Assembly: GCF_000341895.1 (NCBI RefSeq) | Contig: NC_020409.1 | Coordinates: 330,001 to 362,000 of the forward strand | From: Pseudodesulfovibrio piezophilus C1TLV30 | GTDB lineage: Bacteria > Desulfobacterota > Desulfovibrionia > Desulfovibrionales > Desulfovibrionaceae | Length of the DNA stretch: 32,000 nucleotides | Direction: 5' to 3' | Shown here: positions 11,152-20,308 of the stretch, in pieces | Numbering within the stretch: the first letter of the stretch is position 1 | Layout of the letters: every line of letters begins with the position of its first letter | Program-made: the position numbers and the translations under genes | The notes under the pieces: model-generated | Seen by the model: only the letters and a program-made list of their open reading frames with translations | What the model was told of the DNA's origin: nothing | Databases searched by the model: none

Positions 11152-13203
11152 ATGGGCAAAAGCAATGCTCCTTCTGCGAAAGCTTTGCAGAATCTTCGCA
11201 ATATAGGGATTATCGCTCATATTGATGCGGGAAAAACTACTCTCTCAGAGAGGATATTGTATTATTCAGGGAAGATACATAGGATTGGGGAGGTTCATGA
11301 AGGGACAGCCACCATGGACTATATGCCAGAGGAACAGGAGCGAGGGATTACGATCACTTCTGCGGTAACATCATGCCAATGGGACCCGTGCATGATTAAT
11401 ATCATTGATACTCCTGGGCATGTTGATTTTACCATTGAAGTTGAGCGTTCTCTGAGGGTTTTAGATGGTGCCGTTGGTGTCTTTTGTGGTGTAAGCGGAG
11501 TAGAGCCACAATCGGAAACAGTGTGGAGGCAAAGTGAAGCCTATCATGTGCCAAAAATAGTTTTTGTCAATAAAATGGATCGTCTCGGTGCTTGCTTTGA
11601 AGGGGTTGTCAATTCTATAACTGAGAAGCTGGGGGCCTTGGCTCTCCCCATTCAGTTCCCGGATGGAGAAGGGGTTGATTTCAAAGGGGTCTTTGATCTT
11701 GTTTCAATGAAACGACTTGAGTTTGATGCTGAGTCAAATGGGGAGATCTTTGAATCGGTTGAACTCAGTGAAGACGAGATTGACAGACTTGCTCCTTGGA
11801 GAGAACGACTTCTTGAAGTTGCTTCGGATGAGGATGAAGAAATTTTGGAATTATATCTGGGTGGGGAAGATATACCACCTGCGAAAATACGTTCAGCTCT
11901 TCGCAAGGGAACGCTTGAAAGGCGTTTTGTGCCGGTTTTAGTTGGTTCGGCACTCAAAAATATTGGCGTGCAGCCGGTGTTGGATGCTGTCTGCGATTAC
12001 CTTCCAAGCCCGCTTGATGTCCCCCCTGCTATGGGAATTGATCCAACATCCAGAAAAAAGAGTGCTTTTAAGGTCTCTCATAAAGAACCGCTTTCTGCCC
12101 TTGTGTTTAAAGTGGTCATGGACTCAGGGCGTAAGTTGGCCATGATGCGGCTTTATTCAGGAAAGATCACGACGACAGTACCAGTCTATAATGTGACACA
12201 GGGGAAGTCTGAACGTGTCGCCCGTCTATTTCGTCTTCATGCTGGACGAAAGGAAAAAATAGATGTGGCTTATGCAGGTGATATGATTGGTGCAACGGGA
12301 ATGAAATTTGCGCGGACTGGGGATACTCTCTGCTCTGAGGAATCCCCTCTTCTTTTAGAACAGATTGCCGATTATAAGCCCGTTATTTCACTTGCGATAG
12401 AGCCACGAAACTCTGAAGAGGCAGAGAAGCTTGATGAAGCGCTTGAAAAATATCTTTTGGAAGACCCGACTCTGAACTTGAAACGCGACGGTGATACCGA
12501 TCAGATTATTCTATCAGGGATGGGTGAGCTTCATCTCATTGTCGTTTTGGAAAGATTAAAGCGCGAATATAAATTGGAACCAAGGGCTGGAAAGCCTCAA
12601 GTTGTTTATCAGGAAACTGTTATGACCAAGGCTCAGGGCAGTGGGGAATTCCATAGAGAACTGGGTGATGCCATGCACTATGGTAAGGTCTTGCTTTCAG
12701 TGGAGCCACGAGAGCGCGGGCAGGGATGTAAGATTTCGTTTGAATTCGCTTATGATGAATGGCCTGATACTTGGGTTGAAGCTGTAGAGGATGGTATTTC
12801 TGATGGTCTTCAAAGTGGCACTGTCCGAGGCTATCCTGTGCAGGATATACGGGTACGGGTTCTTGGAATGGAACGGATAGACGGTCAATCAACTCCCGTC
12901 GGCTATCGTATGGCATCTGCAGGAGCTCTCAAACAGGCTCTGTCTTTGGCATCTCCCAAGCTGATGGAACCGATTATGTGGATTGAAGTTAATGTGCCGG
13001 AGAATTTTGTGGGAGAAGTTGTGGGGCTTCTGGGCTCTCTTGGGGCAAAAATAGAAAACATGCTTGATAAGGCTGGTCATAAGATTGTACAGGGTCTTGC
13101 GCCATTGGAAAGTTTGTTTGGGTTTTCGACCGAATTGCGTTCAGCGACGCAGGGCCGAGCTGGTTTTATCATGAAATTTCATCGGTTTGATGTTTTGGAG
13201 TAG
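11152..13203 (+). CDS. fusA: elongation factor G paralogue (EF-G2-like translational GTPase)
   Basis: G motifs [14 protein letters not shown] and NKMD, and full five-domain EF-G length. The ATG at 11152 follows GGAGG (11142-11146). The track start 11059 is an upstream extension overlapping the previous gene. No rpsL, rpsG or tuf gene is nearby. Confidence 0.92.
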
Positions 13204-13206
13204 TGA

Positions 13207-13743
13207 GTGAGTGACCTCCGTCGACATTCTCTTGAAGAGGGAAAAAGTAGAGACAAGAAAGACTGGCTGATTGGTTCCAAGAGGTGGTTTAAATACTGGT
13301 ATTTACGCCTGATGCGTCAAAATTCTTCGCCGAAGAATTTGGCTGCTGCCATGGCCCTTGGTATGTTCATCGGAGCCATGCCAATAATTCCCTTCCAGTC
13401 GATTGTTGTTATTGCGTTGGCATTTCTCTTCAGAGTCAATAAGCTGGCAGCGTGGCTTGCGACGTGTTATTCCAACGCTGCGACAATGGTTCCCTTTTAT
13501 TACTTCCTTTTTAAGGTGGGGAATTCGGTCACTTCTTTTAGTAATGTTGTGTTCGATCCACAGAATCTGGAAATGGCAAAGATGATCTCTGCGGGATGGG
13601 ATGTTTTTCTGATCATGTTTGTCGGCGGTTTGGCTTTTGGGGTTCCAGCTACAATAATAACATATTTTTTCTCATTATATATAATCAGGCGTTATCGGAA
13701 GCGCCGCGCGATCAAACAACTCAGAAAGAGAACTGGTAACTGA
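13207..13743 (+). CDS. DUF2062-family membrane protein
   Basis: GTG start 3 nt after the EF-G stop. Contains SPKNLAAAMALGMFIGAMPIIPFQSIVVIALAF and WLATCYSNAATMVPFYYF, typical of DUF2062, with 3-4 TM helices. Confidence 0.8.
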   Translation: MSDLRRHSLEEGKSRDKKDWLIGSKRWFKYWYLRLMRQNSSPKNLAAAMALGMFIGAMPIIPFQSIVVIALAFLFRVNKLAAWLATCYSNAATMVPFYYFLFKVGNSVTSFSNVVFDPQNLEMAKMISAGWDVFLIMFVGGLAFGVPATIITYFFSLYIIRRYRKRRAIKQLRKRTGN

Positions 13744-13797
13744 TCCACCACGTCTTTTTGATGTGCTTTTACCTATTTTAAATCAATAAAGAATTGA

Positions 13798-13846
13798 CCG
13801 TCGAGCCTCAGCGTACCTCATTTACGCTGAGGCTCGACGGTATTTG
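13798..13846 (+). terminator. long perfect hairpin, probable terminator of the fusA-DUF2062 unit
   Basis: 17-bp perfect stem CCGTCGAGCCTCAGCGT (13798-13814) / ACGCTGAGGCTCGACGG (13824-13840). The tail is weak (TATTTGG). Confidence 0.55.
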
Positions 13847-14001
13847 GAATCATGAATAACAAATCTAATCAGAGAGATTCCCGCCGTATTCATCTCACTT
13901 GATTGCTTTTCCCAATAATAGGGAGTAATTACTTACTTAGTAATCCCTGTTTTTTATCAATATTATGCTGGCTTAATCATAAAACCAATGGAGTTAAGTT
14001 G

Positions 14002-16080
14002 ATGAAGATCAAATCTCACTGGTTGCTTCTGGTTTTTTGGTTTTTTTTATGTGGGGTCTTTGGCTTGGCTTTTGTTGTGGGGAATGGGGGGGCTTTTAGC
14101 GGGGCAGTAATTGTCTCATTTATCATTATAGTGGGTGGGATGATTTATATACGGGCCTCGCAAAAGAAATTTTACAAGGTTCTTGATGAGCTAGTCGAGC
14201 CGTCCTTTTTGGAAAAAAAAATTTGTTTTGAACCTACCACAAATTTTGAAAAGTCAGTTTGTTCCTTGGCTTCGGTTTTGCGAGAAAAGCAAAAGGCCAT
14301 ATCTTTTTATGAAGAATCTTTGAAGAATATTGGGAGCCCTCTTTTTATTTTTGATCAAATGGGGCGGATAATTTGGGTTGGATCACCTGCTTTGGCGCTT
14401 GTGCAAAGAACGCCTACCCAGGTGATTGGCTTTTCCTTTGCACAGGCCTTCTTTAATGAAACAGTTCCAACTGAGGTTGAGAAAGCGCTCCAAAGTCATC
14501 AATCGGTCATAGTTTCCCTTGAGCGGAAACTGTGGGATGGCAGACCTCTTAAGGGCAAAATGTTTGTGAATCCGGTGATTGCTTCTGATGATCAAATTGG
14601 AGCTGTGGGTTTTTTTGTGGATACGACTGAGTTGATAGAGCAGGCTCAGGCGACGCAGCAAGAACGTATTATTCATGCAGGAGAAACATTGAGCGGGCTT
14701 GCTGAACATTTAGCATCAGCAACGGAACTTTTATCTGCCTCTGCGGATGATCAAGCTCAGGGAGCGAAAAAACAGCGTAGTCAAACGGAAGCAGTCGCTT
14801 CAGCCATGGAAGAAATGACAGGGACTGTTATTAATGTTGCCCAGAATGCCGCGGCAACAAGTGATGCTGCGAAAGACGCACAACAGTCTGCTGCTCAAGG
14901 TGTTTCTATGGTAAACAAAGCTGTTGCAGCGATTACTGGGGTCGCCGAATCCACCGATACGTTGGGCCATCAAATTTCCGAACTTGATTCTCAAGCTGGA
15001 GATATAGGGAAAATAATCAACACTATAAGTGAGATAGCTGATCAAACTAATTTGCTCGCTCTCAATGCTGCTATTGAGGCTGCGCGGGCTGGCGAAGCAG
15101 GGCGAGGCTTTGCTGTGGTAGCAGATGAAGTCCGAAAATTGGCTGAAAAAACAGTTTTGGCAACCAAAGATGTTTCGGAAGTTATTCAAAATATTCAAAA
15201 ACAGTCACATGATGCATCAGACACAATGCGAACGACAGAACATCTCGTTCTGGAAAGTACAGATTTGTCTAATTTGGCAGGCGATGCTCTTCAGCAAATT
15301 CTCACTAGTATGGATAATATGGTTGCAAGAGTCTCTCAGATTGCGACAGCCGCAGAGCAACAGTCGACAGCTGCTGAGCTGATAAATAGAAGTATTGATG
15401 AGATTGCTGAAATAGCGAGTGACTCTGACGAAGCTGCAGATCAGGCAGCAGGAGCAACACGAGATTTGGCTGGTCTGGCTCGGGAACTTTTGGGTGTTGC
15501 AAATGAATTCATGCACGGGGGTGGTGAAGGGCGCTTGCTGGAATCCGGAACAACGCTCAATGGTGTCCTTCCAATAATCACTCAGGATTTTATTCGACAA
15601 ACATATGGAGCTGAAGCCTATGATGGTTTGCAAGAAGAGATGGGGATCAAGACATTTCTGCCAACGGAAAGTTATTCAGATTCGGTCATGATGGAAATGG
15701 CAGAGTTGCTCTCAGCTTTGGAAGGAGTTGCAGTAAGGGATTTCTTCTTGGATCTTGGGCGAGTTACGATTAAAAAGTTTCATGAAATGTACCCTCAGCA
15801 CTTCCAGGATGAACCTTTGAAGAATTTTTATTTGAGAATGAATGATATTTACGGGGAATTACTTTCAAAAAATAACGGGGTCAGGCTGCCGAGCTTTACT
15901 TTTGAAGACAAAGGAGATGAGTTGTTTATAAACTATAGGTCTGGTCGTGGATTCTTCGATTTTTTTGAAGGGGTGCTTCTGGGGGCGGCTGATTTCAAGG
16001 GAGAAAAGGTTTCCATAGCAATCAAACCACTGGATGAAAATACAGCCAGAGCAGAAATTCTCTTCTACGGAAAAGCATGA
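14002..16080 (+). CDS. methyl-accepting chemotaxis protein: TM hairpin, PAS, MA signalling domain, C-terminal H-NOX-like domain
   Basis: The ATG at 14002 follows GGAG. Two adjacent TM helices with no periplasmic domain. PAS-like block ([15 protein letters not shown]...[11 protein letters not shown]). Invariant MCP hairpin tip [41 protein letters not shown]. The last ~174 aa align by eye to H-NOX. Confidence 0.92.
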
Positions 16081-16211: not shown

Positions 16212-18416
16212 ATGTCCGACGATCTCAACAGGCAGATATTCAGAGAAGAAGCTTACGATCTCCTTGGAGAACTTGAAGGCGCTTTGCTTGAGTTGGAAGA
16301 AAATCCAGATGATATGGATTTGATTAATCAGATTTTTCGTGCCCTGCATACCATAAAAGGGTCCGGGTCCATGTTTGGATTCGAGGATATTGCCGAATTC
16401 ACTCATGAAGTTGAAACTGTTTTTGATATAGTTAGAAATGGTGAACTGAAAGTTTCACCAGCTCTGTGCGGTCTTGGGCTCAAATCGCGTGATTATATCA
16501 AGTCTATGCTCGACGGTGAAGCGGCAGCAGATTCTCCTGTGAGGGATGAAATCCTTGATGGTTTGAAGGATATTTCAGGGATGGGTGATGCTGAAGAGCC
16601 CAGGCTCGTGGAAAGTTCGGAAGTTCTTGTTTCACCGGATGACATAGAGGAGGGGGGCGAATCCTCTGATTCTGTCCGCTATAAAATCAGGATGATCCCC
16701 AGACCTGGTTCAGATGTTGATGAGTCGATGCTTAAATCCGTTTTCGACGAGCTTGAAACTCTTGGGGAATTTTCTATCGTTTCCAGACCTCAAGATTCAG
16801 ATGGGACACACCCACTTGGAGGTGAATGGGAACTGTCTCTTGACACTGCTGTGGGCGTGGATGATGTCAATGATGTATTTCTTTTTGTTGATGCTGATTT
16901 GGCCATTGAAATAAGTGAATTTAATGAGTCTCTATCGAGTTCTCTTAATGGGGAAGCGGAAGGAGTTACCACATCTCCTGAGCAAATTGTTCCGACTTCT
17001 CCTCTTGCACCCCCAAAAACATTGCAGCCTACAGGGGCTGGCACACCCCTTGAAACTCCGCCTCCCAAGCTTGGAGAGTTGTTGATCGATTCTGGAGAAT
17101 TGACGGAAAGAGATGTTCAAGAGGCTCTCCAAAAACAGAAACCATTGGGCCAGATTCTCGCAGAGGATGGAAAGATCGAGCCGGATAAGGTTGAGAAAGC
17201 TGTTCAAAAGCAAATAGAAGTCAAGGAAAGAGAAGCCAATAAGAAACGTCAGGAAGCAATGTCTTCTATTCGAGTTGCTGCGGACAAATTGGATTTTCTT
17301 GTCGATCTTGTTGGTGAATTGGTCATTGTTCAGGCCCAGATATCTCAGGTTGTCAGTGAGAGGAATGATCCGCAAATGACTGCTCTGGCTGAGGAGCTGG
17401 AGCGTTTGAGTGATGAGTTGCGAGATTCTACTCTGGGTATACGCATGTTGCCGATTGGCACTTCCTTTTCCAAATTTAAACGGTTAGTGCGTGATCTTTC
17501 CGGTGAGCTTGGCAAGGAGATTGGACTGTCGACAAGTGGAGAAGACACTGAGCTTGATAAAACAGTGATTGAGCGACTTGGCGATCCTATGGTCCATTTA
17601 TTGAGAAACAGTCTTGACCATGGAATTGAAACCCCCGAGGAGCGTCAGGCACAAGGTAAGCCATCTCAAGGGATGATTCTTCTTTCTGCCGAGCATTCCG
17701 GTGGTGAAGTCCTGATTAGAATCACGGATGATGGACGTGGGATGAGTACGGAAGCCATTCGTGAGAAAGCCATCGAACGCGGTTTGATCCTGAGAGATAC
17801 CGAGTTGACAGAAAAAGAATTGCTAAAACTCATTTTCGAGCCAGGTTTCTCAACAGCAAAAGAAGTGACAAATGTCTCTGGTAGGGGAGTCGGGATGGAC
17901 GTGGTCAAACGTGCCATTGATTCTTTGCGGGGGACTATCGATATTGACAGCAAACCGGGACAAGGGACGACAATTACGATTCGATTGCCTTTGACTCTGG
18001 CCATTATAGATGGTTTGCAGGTTCGCGTTGAAAATGAGTATTATGTTATTCCCTTATCCTTGGTTGAAGAGTGCGTTGAACTCTCTCGAAGTGAAGTAGA
18101 AGCGAGTGATTCTGCACAGCGAATTTTGCATCTGAGAGGGGAGATTGTCCCCTATATCCATATTCGTGATTGGTTTGATATTGAGGGAGATAACCCTCCC
18201 ATTGAGCAGATTGTGATAACCGGAGTCGAAGGGAGCCGGGTTGGCATTGTCGTGGATACAGTCATCGGTGAGCATCAGACCGTCATCAAGAGTTTGAGTC
18301 GAGTTTACAAGGACGTTGAGGGCATTTCCGGAGCCACAATTAAAGGGGATGGTTCCATTGCATTGATCTTGGATATACCAAGTTTGGTTCGTCGTGTTGT
18401 GGCTGAATCCAAGTAA
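16212..18416 (+). CDS. cheA: chemotaxis histidine kinase CheA
   Basis: Hpt P1 domain with FRALHTIKGSG. Also a dimerisation segment, HATPase boxes (HLLRNSLDHGIE, DDGRGM, GRGVGMD, GQGTT) and a C-terminal CheW-like P5 domain. The ATG at 16212 follows GAGGAG. Confidence 0.93.
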   Translation: MSDDLNRQIFREEAYDLLGELEGALLELEENPDDMDLINQIFRALHTIKGSGSMFGFEDIAEFTHEVETVFDIVRNGELKVSPALCGLGLKSRDYIKSMLDGEAAADSPVRDEILDGLKDISGMGDAEEPRLVESSEVLVSPDDIEEGGESSDSVRYKIRMIPRPGSDVDESMLKSVFDELETLGEFSIVSRPQDSDGTHPLGGEWELSLDTAVGVDDVNDVFLFVDADLAIEISEFNESLSSSLNGEAEGVTTSPEQIVPTSPLAPPKTLQPTGAGTPLETPPPKLGELLIDSGELTERDVQEALQKQKPLGQILAEDGKIEPDKVEKAVQKQIEVKEREANKKRQEAMSSIRVAADKLDFLVDLVGELVIVQAQISQVVSERNDPQMTALAEELERLSDELRDSTLGIRMLPIGTSFSKFKRLVRDLSGELGKEIGLSTSGEDTELDKTVIERLGDPMVHLLRNSLDHGIETPEERQAQGKPSQGMILLSAEHSGGEVLIRITDDGRGMSTEAIREKAIERGLILRDTELTEKELLKLIFEPGFSTAKEVTNVSGRGVGMDVVKRAIDSLRGTIDIDSKPGQGTTITIRLPLTLAIIDGLQVRVENEYYVIPLSLVEECVELSRSEVEASDSAQRILHLRGEIVPYIHIRDWFDIEGDNPPIEQIVITGVEGSRVGIVVDTVIGEHQTVIKSLSRVYKDVEGISGATIKGDGSIALILDIPSLVRRVVAESK

Positions 18417-18453
18417 CGTGCTTCATCATTAGTTACTTACGAGGCGTTGATAA

Positions 18454-19521
18454 ATGGCAAAGAAAATTCGAGTTCTTATTGTAGATGATTCTGCTGTGGT
18501 CAGGCAAACTCTTGAAGATATATTGAGTTCCGATCCTGATATCGAGGTGATGGGAACAGCCTCAGATCCGTATGTCGCGGCCCAGCGGCTCAAGACAGAA
18601 GTTCCAGATGTCATAACGCTGGATATCGAAATGCCGCGTATGGACGGCCTGACTTTTTTGCAGAAGTTAATGAAGCAGAAACCTATTCCCGTCGTTATTT
18701 GTTCATCTGTTGCAGAGAAAGGTACAGGAAACGGTTTGAAAGCCCTGGAGCTTGGTGCTGTAGAAATTATCACCAAGCCCAAAATCGGGACAAAAAAATT
18801 TCTTGAAGAATCCAGCATTCGCCTCATTGACAAGGTCAAGGCCGCAGCAATGGCCAAAGCAAAACCTGCCAGTGCGATTACGCCAATCAAGATTGCACCC
18901 AAGCTTGATGCAGATGCGGTCATACCTATGGGAAAATCTCAAGCCATGGGGACAACGGAAAAGATATGTCTCGTGGGAGCCTCGACTGGGGGAACGGAAG
19001 CTCTTAAGGTGTTTCTTGAGATGCAGCCTCCAGGGTGCCCTCCTATTGGGATAGTCCAGCATATGCCTGAACATTTCACCAAAGCATTTGCAAATCGGTT
19101 GAACTCCATTTGTCAGATTACAGTGAAAGAAGCTGAAGATGGAGACCCCATGCTGCGTGGGCAGGCTTTGATCGCTCCGGGTGACAAGCATATGTTACTC
19201 AAGCGAAGTGGCTCTAAATATTATGTCGAAGTCAAGGCGGGACCACTTGTTTCCAGGCATCGGCCATCTGTTGACGTCTTATTTCGCTCGGGGGCGAGGT
19301 ATGGAGGTGGTAATGTCGTCGCCGCTATTATGACAGGAATGGGAGATGATGGTGCCAAGGGTATGAAGGAACTCTACGATGCTGGTGCATACACTATTGC
19401 TCAAGATGAAGCGACATGTGTCGTTTTCGGGATGCCACAGGAGGCTATTAAGCACGGTGGTGTACACAAGGTGATGCCACTTCAGCAAATAGCAGGCGAA
19501 ATCGTCAAAAGTTGTGGCTGA
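18454..19521 (+). CDS. cheB: protein-glutamate methylesterase/glutaminase CheB
   Basis: REC domain (VLIVDDS...[11 protein letters not shown]) plus methylesterase domain ([24 protein letters not shown]). Confidence 0.95.
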
Positions 19522-19568: not shown

Positions 19569-19910
19569 TCAGATTTTTTGTGAATGTCTGTACACAATGA
19601 CATGAACAGGTTCTTTCGTGATCATTCCTTCAGTGATTGATTCATCAAGAAAAGCCAGCAGTGGAGCAAGTCTGTCCGGATGATCTATGATTTCAATGAC
19701 CACGGGAAGATCTTCGGACAACCTGAGAATTTTACTGGTGTGGATACGACTATTGGCACCGAATCCTGCCAATCCACGAAAAACAGTTGCTCCTGCAAGT
19801 CCCATTTTGCGAGCCTGCTCAACAACAACATTAGCCAGTGGACGGCCTTCAATTTTATCGTCTTCGCCCGTGTAAATTCTTATGCGTTCTGCTTTTTCCA
19901 AAAGTTTCAT
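19569..19910 (-). CDS. DUF190 (PII-like) protein, CrcB-associated
   Basis: Contains RIYTGEDDK...GATVFRGLAGFGANSRIHT...DLPVVIEIID, typical of DUF190. It lies immediately downstream of crcB on the same strand. Confidence 0.85.
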   Translation of the reverse strand: MKLLEKAERIRIYTGEDDKIEGRPLANVVVEQARKMGLAGATVFRGLAGFGANSRIHTSKILRLSEDLPVVIEIIDHPDRLAPLLAFLDESITEGMITKEPVHVIVYRHSQKI

Positions 19911-19930
19911 GCCATTCCTGCCGATAGTGT

Positions 19931-20308
19931 TTAAATGAGTCTACCCAGTGCGATGCCGGTTAAAACCAGGAATAGTCCAACAAGACTTTGCCCGACGACA
20001 TTAAAGAGTGCTGTTGTTATTTGGCTCAGCTTGACCAGTTCTGCGGTTTCAAACATGTATGTTGAAAAGGTGGTAAAGGCTCCCATAAATCCAGTGAGAG
20101 CTAAAAGGCGGATCTCACTTCCCGGGAGGAGCCTGTTTTCGAAGAATCCCCATACAGTGCCGAAGAAGAGACAGCCCAGCATATTTACAGCAAAGGTTCC
20201 GGCGGGGAAACTTCCTCCTGCCAATTTTTGTGCTACACCTGAAAGCCAGTATCGAGAAAGGGTGCCAGCTGCACCACCTGCAGAAAGGAAGAGTATTTTT
20301 GTCAACAT
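19931..20308 (-). CDS. crcB: fluoride ion channel CrcB/FluC
   Basis: 125 aa with 4 TM helices. Contains GGAAGTLSRY, GTFAVNMLGCF-like and GFMGAFTTFSTY motifs. Confidence 0.92.
   Translation of the reverse strand: MLTKILFLSAGGAAGTLSRYWLSGVAQKLAGGSFPAGTFAVNMLGCLFFGTVWGFFENRLLPGSEIRLLALTGFMGAFTTFSTYMFETAELVKLSQITTALFNVVGQSLVGLFLVLTGIALGRLI

Follow-up and report, generated by a model that had tools for sequence, protein, structure and literature searches.

H-NOX domains are defined functionally by a heme whose iron is ligated by a histidine, and to our knowledge no bacterial H-NOX without this residue has been characterised. The present work deals with such a domain at the C-terminus of a chemoreceptor of Pseudodesulfovibrio (formerly Desulfovibrio) piezophilus C1TLV30, encoded at positions 14002-16080 of a 32,000-nucleotide stretch of its genome (contig NC_020409.1, positions 330,001 to 362,000 of the forward strand; hereafter the window). 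All coordinates are those of the window, and features lie on its plus strand unless stated otherwise. The closest described system is the H-NOX of Thermoanaerobacter (Caldanaerobacter) tengcongensis (Tt H-NOX; structures 1u4h and 1u55), the sensor of the chemoreceptor Tar4, which is likewise fused to a methyl-accepting chemotaxis protein (MCP) of an obligate anaerobe (PMC8738867). A tyrosine in the distal pocket, Tyr140 of Tt H-NOX, characterises the O2-binding H-NOX of obligate anaerobes and is needed for O2 binding (PMC8738867). The P. piezophilus domain shares fold and family with Tt H-NOX and has kept its YxSxR motif and Pro115, but it lies C-terminal rather than N-terminal to the methyl-accepting (MA) signalling domain, and where Tt H-NOX carries His102, Tyr140, Trp9 and Asn74 it carries Tyr, Phe, Thr and Thr, respectively.

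The best precedent for an H-NOX that has become a pseudo-sensor is found in the alpha subunit of soluble guanylate cyclase (sGC), a signalling protein whose H-NOX has kept its fold although it binds no heme (PMC6839917). This is, however, a eukaryotic protein, in which the domain sits in a heterodimer beside the heme-bearing beta H-NOX, in an anciently conserved state and in no chemoreceptor, whereas the loss in P. piezophilus would be recent and lineage-specific. As to the position of the domain, DcrH of Desulfovibrio vulgaris is an MCP with a C-terminal hemerythrin, and this combination is the commonest architecture among long hemerythrins (PMC4919030). DcrH thus has in common with the P. 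piezophilus receptor a cytoplasmic gas-binding domain placed after MA, but its fold and cofactor are others, a di-iron four-helix bundle, and the two domains are not homologous. For the substitution itself, the parallel comes from globins with a proximal His-to-Tyr change (hemoglobin (Hb) M Iwate, Hb M Hyde Park and myoglobin H93Y), which hold heme as a five-coordinate ferric tyrosinate. The same one-step replacement of the axial His keeps ferric heme and abolishes O2 binding in these proteins, although in a different fold and in disease or engineered variants.

The H-NOX domain and its proximal-ligand column

The receptor gene starts at the ATG at 14002, within a longer open reading frame (13903-16080) that opens with TTG, and its product of 692 residues matches exactly an entry of the protein collection (WP_015413618.1, CCH47563.1). 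Pfam and the translation give the domain order as a transmembrane hairpin, PAS, MA and a C-terminal H-NOX. The last 174 residues (15556-16077) had been proposed to be H-NOX-like in a first-pass annotation of the sequence, on the grounds of an almost gapless match to Tt H-NOX, and this proposal is borne out: the domain is a member of the HNOB/H-NOX superfamily by sequence and fold. Taken alone, it matches PF07700 (HNOB) with 101.4 bits against a cut-off of 25.5 (E 6e-29), over profile positions 2-162 of 163. In a phmmer search against PDB sequences, Tt H-NOX (1u4h) aligns to the domain with E 4e-11 and a single 3-residue gap, at a sequence identity of about 23%. An AlphaFold2 model of the domain (predicted local distance difference test, pLDDT, 82; predicted template modelling score, pTM, 0.80) superposes in Foldseek on the Tt H-NOX structures 3sj5, 4it2 and 1u4h with a template modelling (TM) score of 0.87 and E 5e-12, and on Tt, Nostoc and Shewanella H-NOX crystal structures with TM scores of 0.85-0.88. 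The H-NOX fold comprises a helical subdomain at the N-terminus and an alpha/beta subdomain at the C-terminus. The model is least confident in part of the stretch formed by helix alpha-F and the loop after it, where the block of residues 101-110 has a mean pLDDT of 56.

The column of the proximal heme-ligating His of helix alpha-F (Tt His102, sGC beta1 His105) is occupied by Tyr99 of the domain (TAC, 15850-15852), on which phmmer, MAFFT and hmmalign agree. An alignment shift that would put a nearby His into this column can be discarded, given the concordance of the three methods and the ancestral character of His76 and His82, the two histidines of the neighbouring FHEMYPQHF segment. The distal Tyr140 column holds Phe136 (15961-15963, by alignment to Tt H-NOX), and the family alignment places a Leu (15886-15888) in the column of Tt Pro114. 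Other pocket residues have been kept, among them Pro112, which corresponds to the heme-contacting Tt Pro115 (15889-15891; Pro in 119/119 homologues), Phe78 and Met98, as well as the heme-propionate motif YxSxR, present as YRSGR (15934-15948) opposite Tt Y131, S133 and R135 and invariant in the family. The first-pass annotation had read the Tyr and the intact motif in this way, and had located every residue correctly. It had also noted a Thr in each of the columns of Trp9 and Asn74; this is so, but it is no peculiarity of the domain, as the family has Met or Thr in the former and Thr in the latter, while keeping the distal Tyr. Since the domain has neither the proximal His nor the distal Tyr, it should not be classed as a canonical heme-NO/O2 sensor.

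The rarity of the substitution was assessed on 74 related loci (48 from a one-genome-per-species scan and 26 from a metagenome scan) and on 119 further homologues from a full-length protein search, which make 120 with the window protein. His occupies the ligand column in 74/74 related loci, in 118/119 full-length homologues and in 143 of 150 cluster representatives (50% identity) drawn from 1.84 billion proteins. The Tyr is therefore not conserved among orthologues, where it is confined to P. piezophilus. The codon of the relatives in this column is CAC or CAT, and the change to Tyr would correspond to one C-to-T transition (CAC to TAC). The Tyr recurs in two further proteins of the same 90% cluster. 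One of them is encoded on a metagenome contig from IMG (L075), in which 11 of 8079 bases depart from the window sequence (99.86% identical) and the TAC is kept; three of these differences fall inside the receptor gene and none within its H-NOX part. A sequencing error is ruled out by this contig and by the third cluster member with Tyr. No closer Tyr-bearing relative was found in the genome scan, the metagenome scan, the 1.84 billion representatives or a search of 5.8 billion proteins, the best relative being 64% identical over the domain and 59% over the full length, and the age of the substitution can thus be resolved no further than to the P. piezophilus lineage.

The loss of the His does not stand by itself. 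Tyr is present in the Tyr140 column in 69/72 related loci and 115/119 homologues, and Pro in the Pro114 column in 71/74 loci and 114/119 homologues, where the window protein has Phe and Leu. Of the strongly conserved H-NOX columns, 15 of 63 by one count, or 18 of 84 by another, deviate from the family consensus in this protein, the median over the 120 homologues being two columns. Six of the 15 deviations fall in residues 99-116, that is, in helix alpha-F and the loop that follows. The window protein also has the longest terminal branch of the 120 in a neighbour-joining tree. Relative-rate counts, expressed as the ratio of the window lineage to sister orthologues, give 1.55 for PAS plus the first MA arm, 5.8 for the MA tip, 6.3 for the C-terminal MA arm and 3.5 for the H-NOX; for the neighbouring genes of an EF-G paralogue and CheB, the ratio is 1.1-1.5 against five of six sisters (0.86-1.9 with L018).

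The acceleration is thus limited to the C-terminal half of the receptor (14992-16077), comprising MA tip, C-terminal MA arm, linker and H-NOX, which suggests that the appended H-NOX and its attached MA arm co-evolve. Whichever of the N-terminal, MA and H-NOX regions is compared, the nearest relatives come from one and the same clade; the pattern therefore reflects acceleration, and recombination or a foreign origin of the C-terminal half is ruled out. A genome-wide shift in rate or composition is likewise insufficient as the sole cause, as seen from the low ratios of EF-G, CheB and the N-terminal half of the receptor next to the 3.5-6.3 of the C-terminal half. The receptor is very probably functional, because the hairpin tip of MA is canonical and the reading frame is intact.

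A second lineage without the histidine and distant His-less proteins

One other receptor of the family lacks the His. P0251 (L076 8001-10076, on a contig from Logan SRR22273277) has Val (GTT) in the ligand column, Leu in place of Pro114 and Leu in place of Tyr140, with YxSxR kept. The contig, 47 kb in length, was seen in three samples and has the same gene neighbourhood. P0251 falls in a different clade from the window protein, i.e., in another Desulfovibrionaceae lineage. Val cannot coordinate iron, and the receptor family therefore evidently tolerates the loss of axial ligation, to judge from this sequence. The sister of P0251, P0233, has kept the His and has Phe at Tyr140, and the same combination is found in P0163 (L050), a protein near the window protein. 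By parsimony, this suggests that the distal Tyr may have been lost first and the His later. Moreover, both His-less sequences are among the five of 120 without the distal Tyr, for which the chance expectation is C(5,2)/C(120,2) = 10/7140 = 0.0014 when phylogenetic structure is ignored.

At a greater distance, P0121, P0131, P0142 and P0156 are stand-alone proteins that match both Pfam HNOB and V4R and carry Tyr, Phe, Leu and Ile, respectively, in place of the proximal His; YxSxR is kept in them, and a CxxxGxxxC motif is present at the C-terminus. They look like a separate His-less lineage of the HNOB/V4R type. The HNOB match, the missing proximal His and the kept YxSxR are shared with the P. 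piezophilus domain, as is, in P0121, the Tyr. Nevertheless, these proteins are only about 25-28% identical to it, match V4R and are not domains of chemoreceptors. YxSxR has been kept in all six His-less HNOB proteins seen (the window protein, P0251, P0121, P0131, P0142 and P0156).

Probable loss of heme gas sensing and the competing explanations

The reading that we favour, as a probable rather than an assured one, is that P. piezophilus no longer has canonical His-Fe(II) gas sensing in this domain and retains the fold as a module that is heme-free or in some way altered. The ancestral receptor would almost certainly have carried a C-terminal H-NOX with His-ligated heme and distal Tyr; this type corresponds to the O2-binding class of obligate anaerobes, and the receptor would probably have signalled O2 or NO to CheA. 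In the lineage of P. piezophilus, the replacement of the axial His by Tyr, of the distal Tyr by Phe and of Pro114 by Leu would have dismantled the canonical sensor, with the whole C-terminal half, from the MA tip to the H-NOX, evolving several-fold faster than in sister species. The H-NOX is most likely heme-free or non-canonically loaded, and could serve as a pseudo-sensor or as a structural or regulatory cap, like the H-NOX of sGC alpha. In that case the receptor would depend on PAS and MA for signalling, and the co-accelerated C-terminal MA arm and linker would fit a re-tuned or relaxed coupling of the appended domain to the signalling bundle. Redundancy may have permitted the loss of the sensor, as three O2-binding hemerythrin sequences are present in P. 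piezophilus (PMC4919030).

Comparison with the relatives speaks more for loss or degeneration of an ancestral heme gas sensing function than for a designed Tyr-heme sensor, because the substitution is found in a single species, Tyr140 and Pro114 have been lost along with the His, the C-terminal half is accelerated and a parallel change from His to Val has occurred elsewhere in the family. The missing axial His ligand is read directly from the alignments; a heme-free state is what we infer from it, and this state, unlike that of sGC alpha, would not be conserved across a clade. The fold, YxSxR and an intact frame have all been retained, and the domain is therefore still under selection.

Several points weigh against a loss of heme. 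YxSxR, Pro115, Phe78 and Met98 have all been kept, and none of them would be needed in a truly empty pocket. The weight of this retention is reduced, however, as about 24% of the conserved columns have changed, so that four would be kept by chance with a probability of ~0.3, and as other His-less HNOB proteins keep YxSxR as well. In addition, Tyr serves well as a heme ligand elsewhere among proteins, and it is this residue, not a random one, that is found here. The domain is also clearly still under purifying selection, and so would be doing something. Finally, the MA region is accelerated too, and the changes could represent adaptive retuning rather than decay.

A Tyr-ligated heme sensor is a possible but rather unlikely alternative, in which YxSxR and the hydrophobic pocket would bind heme and Tyr99, as a tyrosinate, would lock a low-potential Fe(III). 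Such a receptor would sense a signal other than O2, be it the redox state, sulfide, another anionic ligand or NO at ferric heme. The intact fold and the retention of YxSxR, Pro115, Phe78 and Met98 speak for it, the globin variants with a proximal His-to-Tyr change offer an analogy, the loss of the distal hydrogen-bonding Tyr suits a heme that no longer binds O2, and the six deviations at residues 99-116 could re-space helix alpha-F for the longer side chain. Against it speak the occurrence of the Tyr in one species only, with no relative that conserves it, and the non-ligating Val of the other His-less orthologue; nor was an obvious hydrogen-bond partner for the tyrosinate, of the kind that Tyr-ligated heme proteins usually have, identified. 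A search of the literature, as far as it was searchable, found no report of H102Y, H105Y or H103Y variants of H-NOX. It is an unlikely proposition, taken as a whole, that the domain would be the first natural H-NOX with a tyrosinate-ligated ferric heme, sensing another signal (redox, sulfide or another anion) from the C-terminus of a chemoreceptor in a deep-sea sulfate reducer, and that one swap of the proximal ligand together with loss of the distal Tyr would have brought about this conversion. The other proposal of the first-pass annotation, a pocket repurposed for a non-heme ligand, we regard as quite unlikely. Here YxSxR would hold, with no axial bond, a hydrophobic dicarboxylate of a non-heme or non-ligated kind; a tetrapyrrole (metal-free or other) and an amphipathic acid would be examples. 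This would account for the YxSxR of both His-less orthologues and of the distant HNOB/V4R proteins, and it has a precedent in solved heme-free H-NOX pockets occupied by the drugs BAY 60-2770 (4iae) and cinaciguat (5mnw), the carboxylates of which sit on YxSxR. No candidate ligand is known, however, the two His-less orthologues share only Pro114 to Leu among their substitutions, and the case again concerns a single species.

Two further explanations were considered. A substitute axial ligand would allow the domain to remain an ordinary heme gas sensor, and the helices that line the pocket region do offer two His and one Met (His76 or His82 in FHEMYPQHF, 15778-15804, or Met95). This is very improbable: among relatives that also keep His102, His76 is present in 38/68, His82 in 13/68 and Met95 in 62/68, which marks these residues as ancestral and not compensatory, the profile alignment leaves them outside the ligand column, and the distal Tyr required for O2 binding has gone too. 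An artefact or a dying gene, that is, a sequencing error or a functionless, pseudogenising receptor, could be suspected from the single-nucleotide nature of the change and the long terminal branch, but it is extremely improbable in view of the TAC on the independent contig L075, which shows only those 11 differences in 8 kb, the Tyr in the third cluster member, the intact frame of 692 codons, the canonical MA tip, the HNOB score of 101 bits and the confidently predicted fold. The sequence comparison as a whole points to a lineage-specific degeneration of the sensor rather than to new sensing chemistry.

Receptor family, gene neighbourhood and significance

At the N-terminus of the receptor, two hydrophobic helices form a membrane hairpin (14020-14151; 44 residues, topology deduced from the translation) and are separated by a loop of only about six residues; therefore, the receptor would have no periplasmic sensor domain, and all sensing would be cytoplasmic. 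A cytoplasmic PAS domain follows (14305-14637; Pfam PAS_9, PAS and PAS_4, E 2e-7 to 8e-6, residues 135-245 of the TTG-started frame), in a region that is weakly conserved across the receptor family (8/155 columns). The MA domain (14860-15414; PF00015, MCPsignal, E 9e-44) has a canonical and intact hairpin tip of 39 residues, and this match, the tip and the genes for CheA and CheB directly downstream place the protein among the MCPs. The final MA helix is connected with the H-NOX by a Gly-rich linker of about 18 residues (15502-15555), which is visible in the translation and falls outside the envelopes of both Pfam matches, in the gap that separates them. The H-NOX opens with Leu-Asn (15556-15561), where 93% of relatives start it with Met (consensus M-K-G-V-L-P-K); the Met start looks as if a once-separate H-NOX gene had been fused.

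Upstream of the receptor gene lie the genes of the EF-G paralogue and of a DUF2062 membrane protein (11152-13743; Pfam and synteny), which define the orthologous locus and are always found directly upstream of receptor, CheA and CheB in Pseudodesulfovibrio and allied genera (the window; L001-L019, L039, L075 and L076). In the intergenic spacer that separates the receptor gene from that of DUF2062, a perfect G+C-rich inverted repeat of 19 bp with a 7-base loop (13797-13841) resembles a terminator on the minus strand in a consensus scan. Directly downstream is cheA (16212-18416; Hpt, dimerisation, HATPase and CheW-like domains by Pfam, a gene call on L075, syntenic in relatives), followed by the gene of the CheB methylesterase (18454-19521; Pfam, exact match to WP_015413620.1). 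The cluster thus consists of the receptor, a CheA with its own CheW-like domain (16212-19521 for the che genes) and CheB, with no separate cheW, cheY or cheR adjacent to it in the window; several relatives have an additional gene between cheA and cheB. On the minus strand, opposite to the che genes, a DUF190-like and a CrcB-like (fluoride channel) reading frame occupy 19569-20308, CrcB being recognised by eye from the translation. Rfam gave no family at threshold anywhere in the window, the fluoride riboswitch included.

All 48 loci of the genome scan fall within the Desulfovibrionaceae or Desulfovibrionales, the best being 64% identical. About 20 loci have in common the gene order EF-G paralogue, DUF2062, MCP (PAS-MA-H-NOX), CheA and CheB, often with CYTH and ClpA in addition, and contigs L075 and L076 show the same neighbourhood. 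These syntenic loci are positional orthologues of the P. piezophilus receptor, which by domain order and neighbourhood belongs to the Desulfovibrionaceae che-cluster PAS-MA-H-NOX orthogroup. All 119 full-length homologues carry both PF00015 and PF07700, and in 120/120 proteins the chain ends 1-10 residues past the H-NOX. The placement of the domain after MA, which had at first been taken as unusual, is thus the rule, and a C-terminal H-NOX is the standard architecture of this receptor family. Receptors such as those of Pseudodesulfovibrio sp. zrk46 (P0173), P. mercurii (P0205) and Salidesulfovibrio brasiliensis (P0221) have the same architecture and neighbourhood at a full-length identity of 45-59%. 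Among the Desulfovibrionaceae orthologues, His102 is present in all but one and Tyr140 and Pro114 in nearly all, whereas P. piezophilus is without all three. No experimental work on these receptors, and no paper devoted to Desulfovibrio H-NOX chemoreceptors, was found in the literature, where a review on chemotaxis in Geobacter was the one match.

P. piezophilus has a natural His-to-Tyr H-NOX inside a chemoreceptor, a substitution that, among the sequences compared, is very rare. Should the domain simply be degenerate, the locus would be no more than a commonplace instance of a sensor decaying in a single species. It can also be regarded as a natural experiment, in which the His is kept by about 190 receptors, orthologous or closely related, and has been lost, together with the distal Tyr and Pro114, in two independent lineages. 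As such, it bears on whether Tyr can act as the axial ligand within an H-NOX fold, on whether an H-NOX that holds no heme continues to regulate a chemoreceptor and, given the co-acceleration of the coupled region, on how a C-terminally appended sensor is coupled to the MA bundle. The Desulfovibrionaceae che-cluster PAS-MA-H-NOX family to which it belongs is apparently uncharacterised, and its members probably serve sulfate reducers as sensors in O2 or NO taxis.

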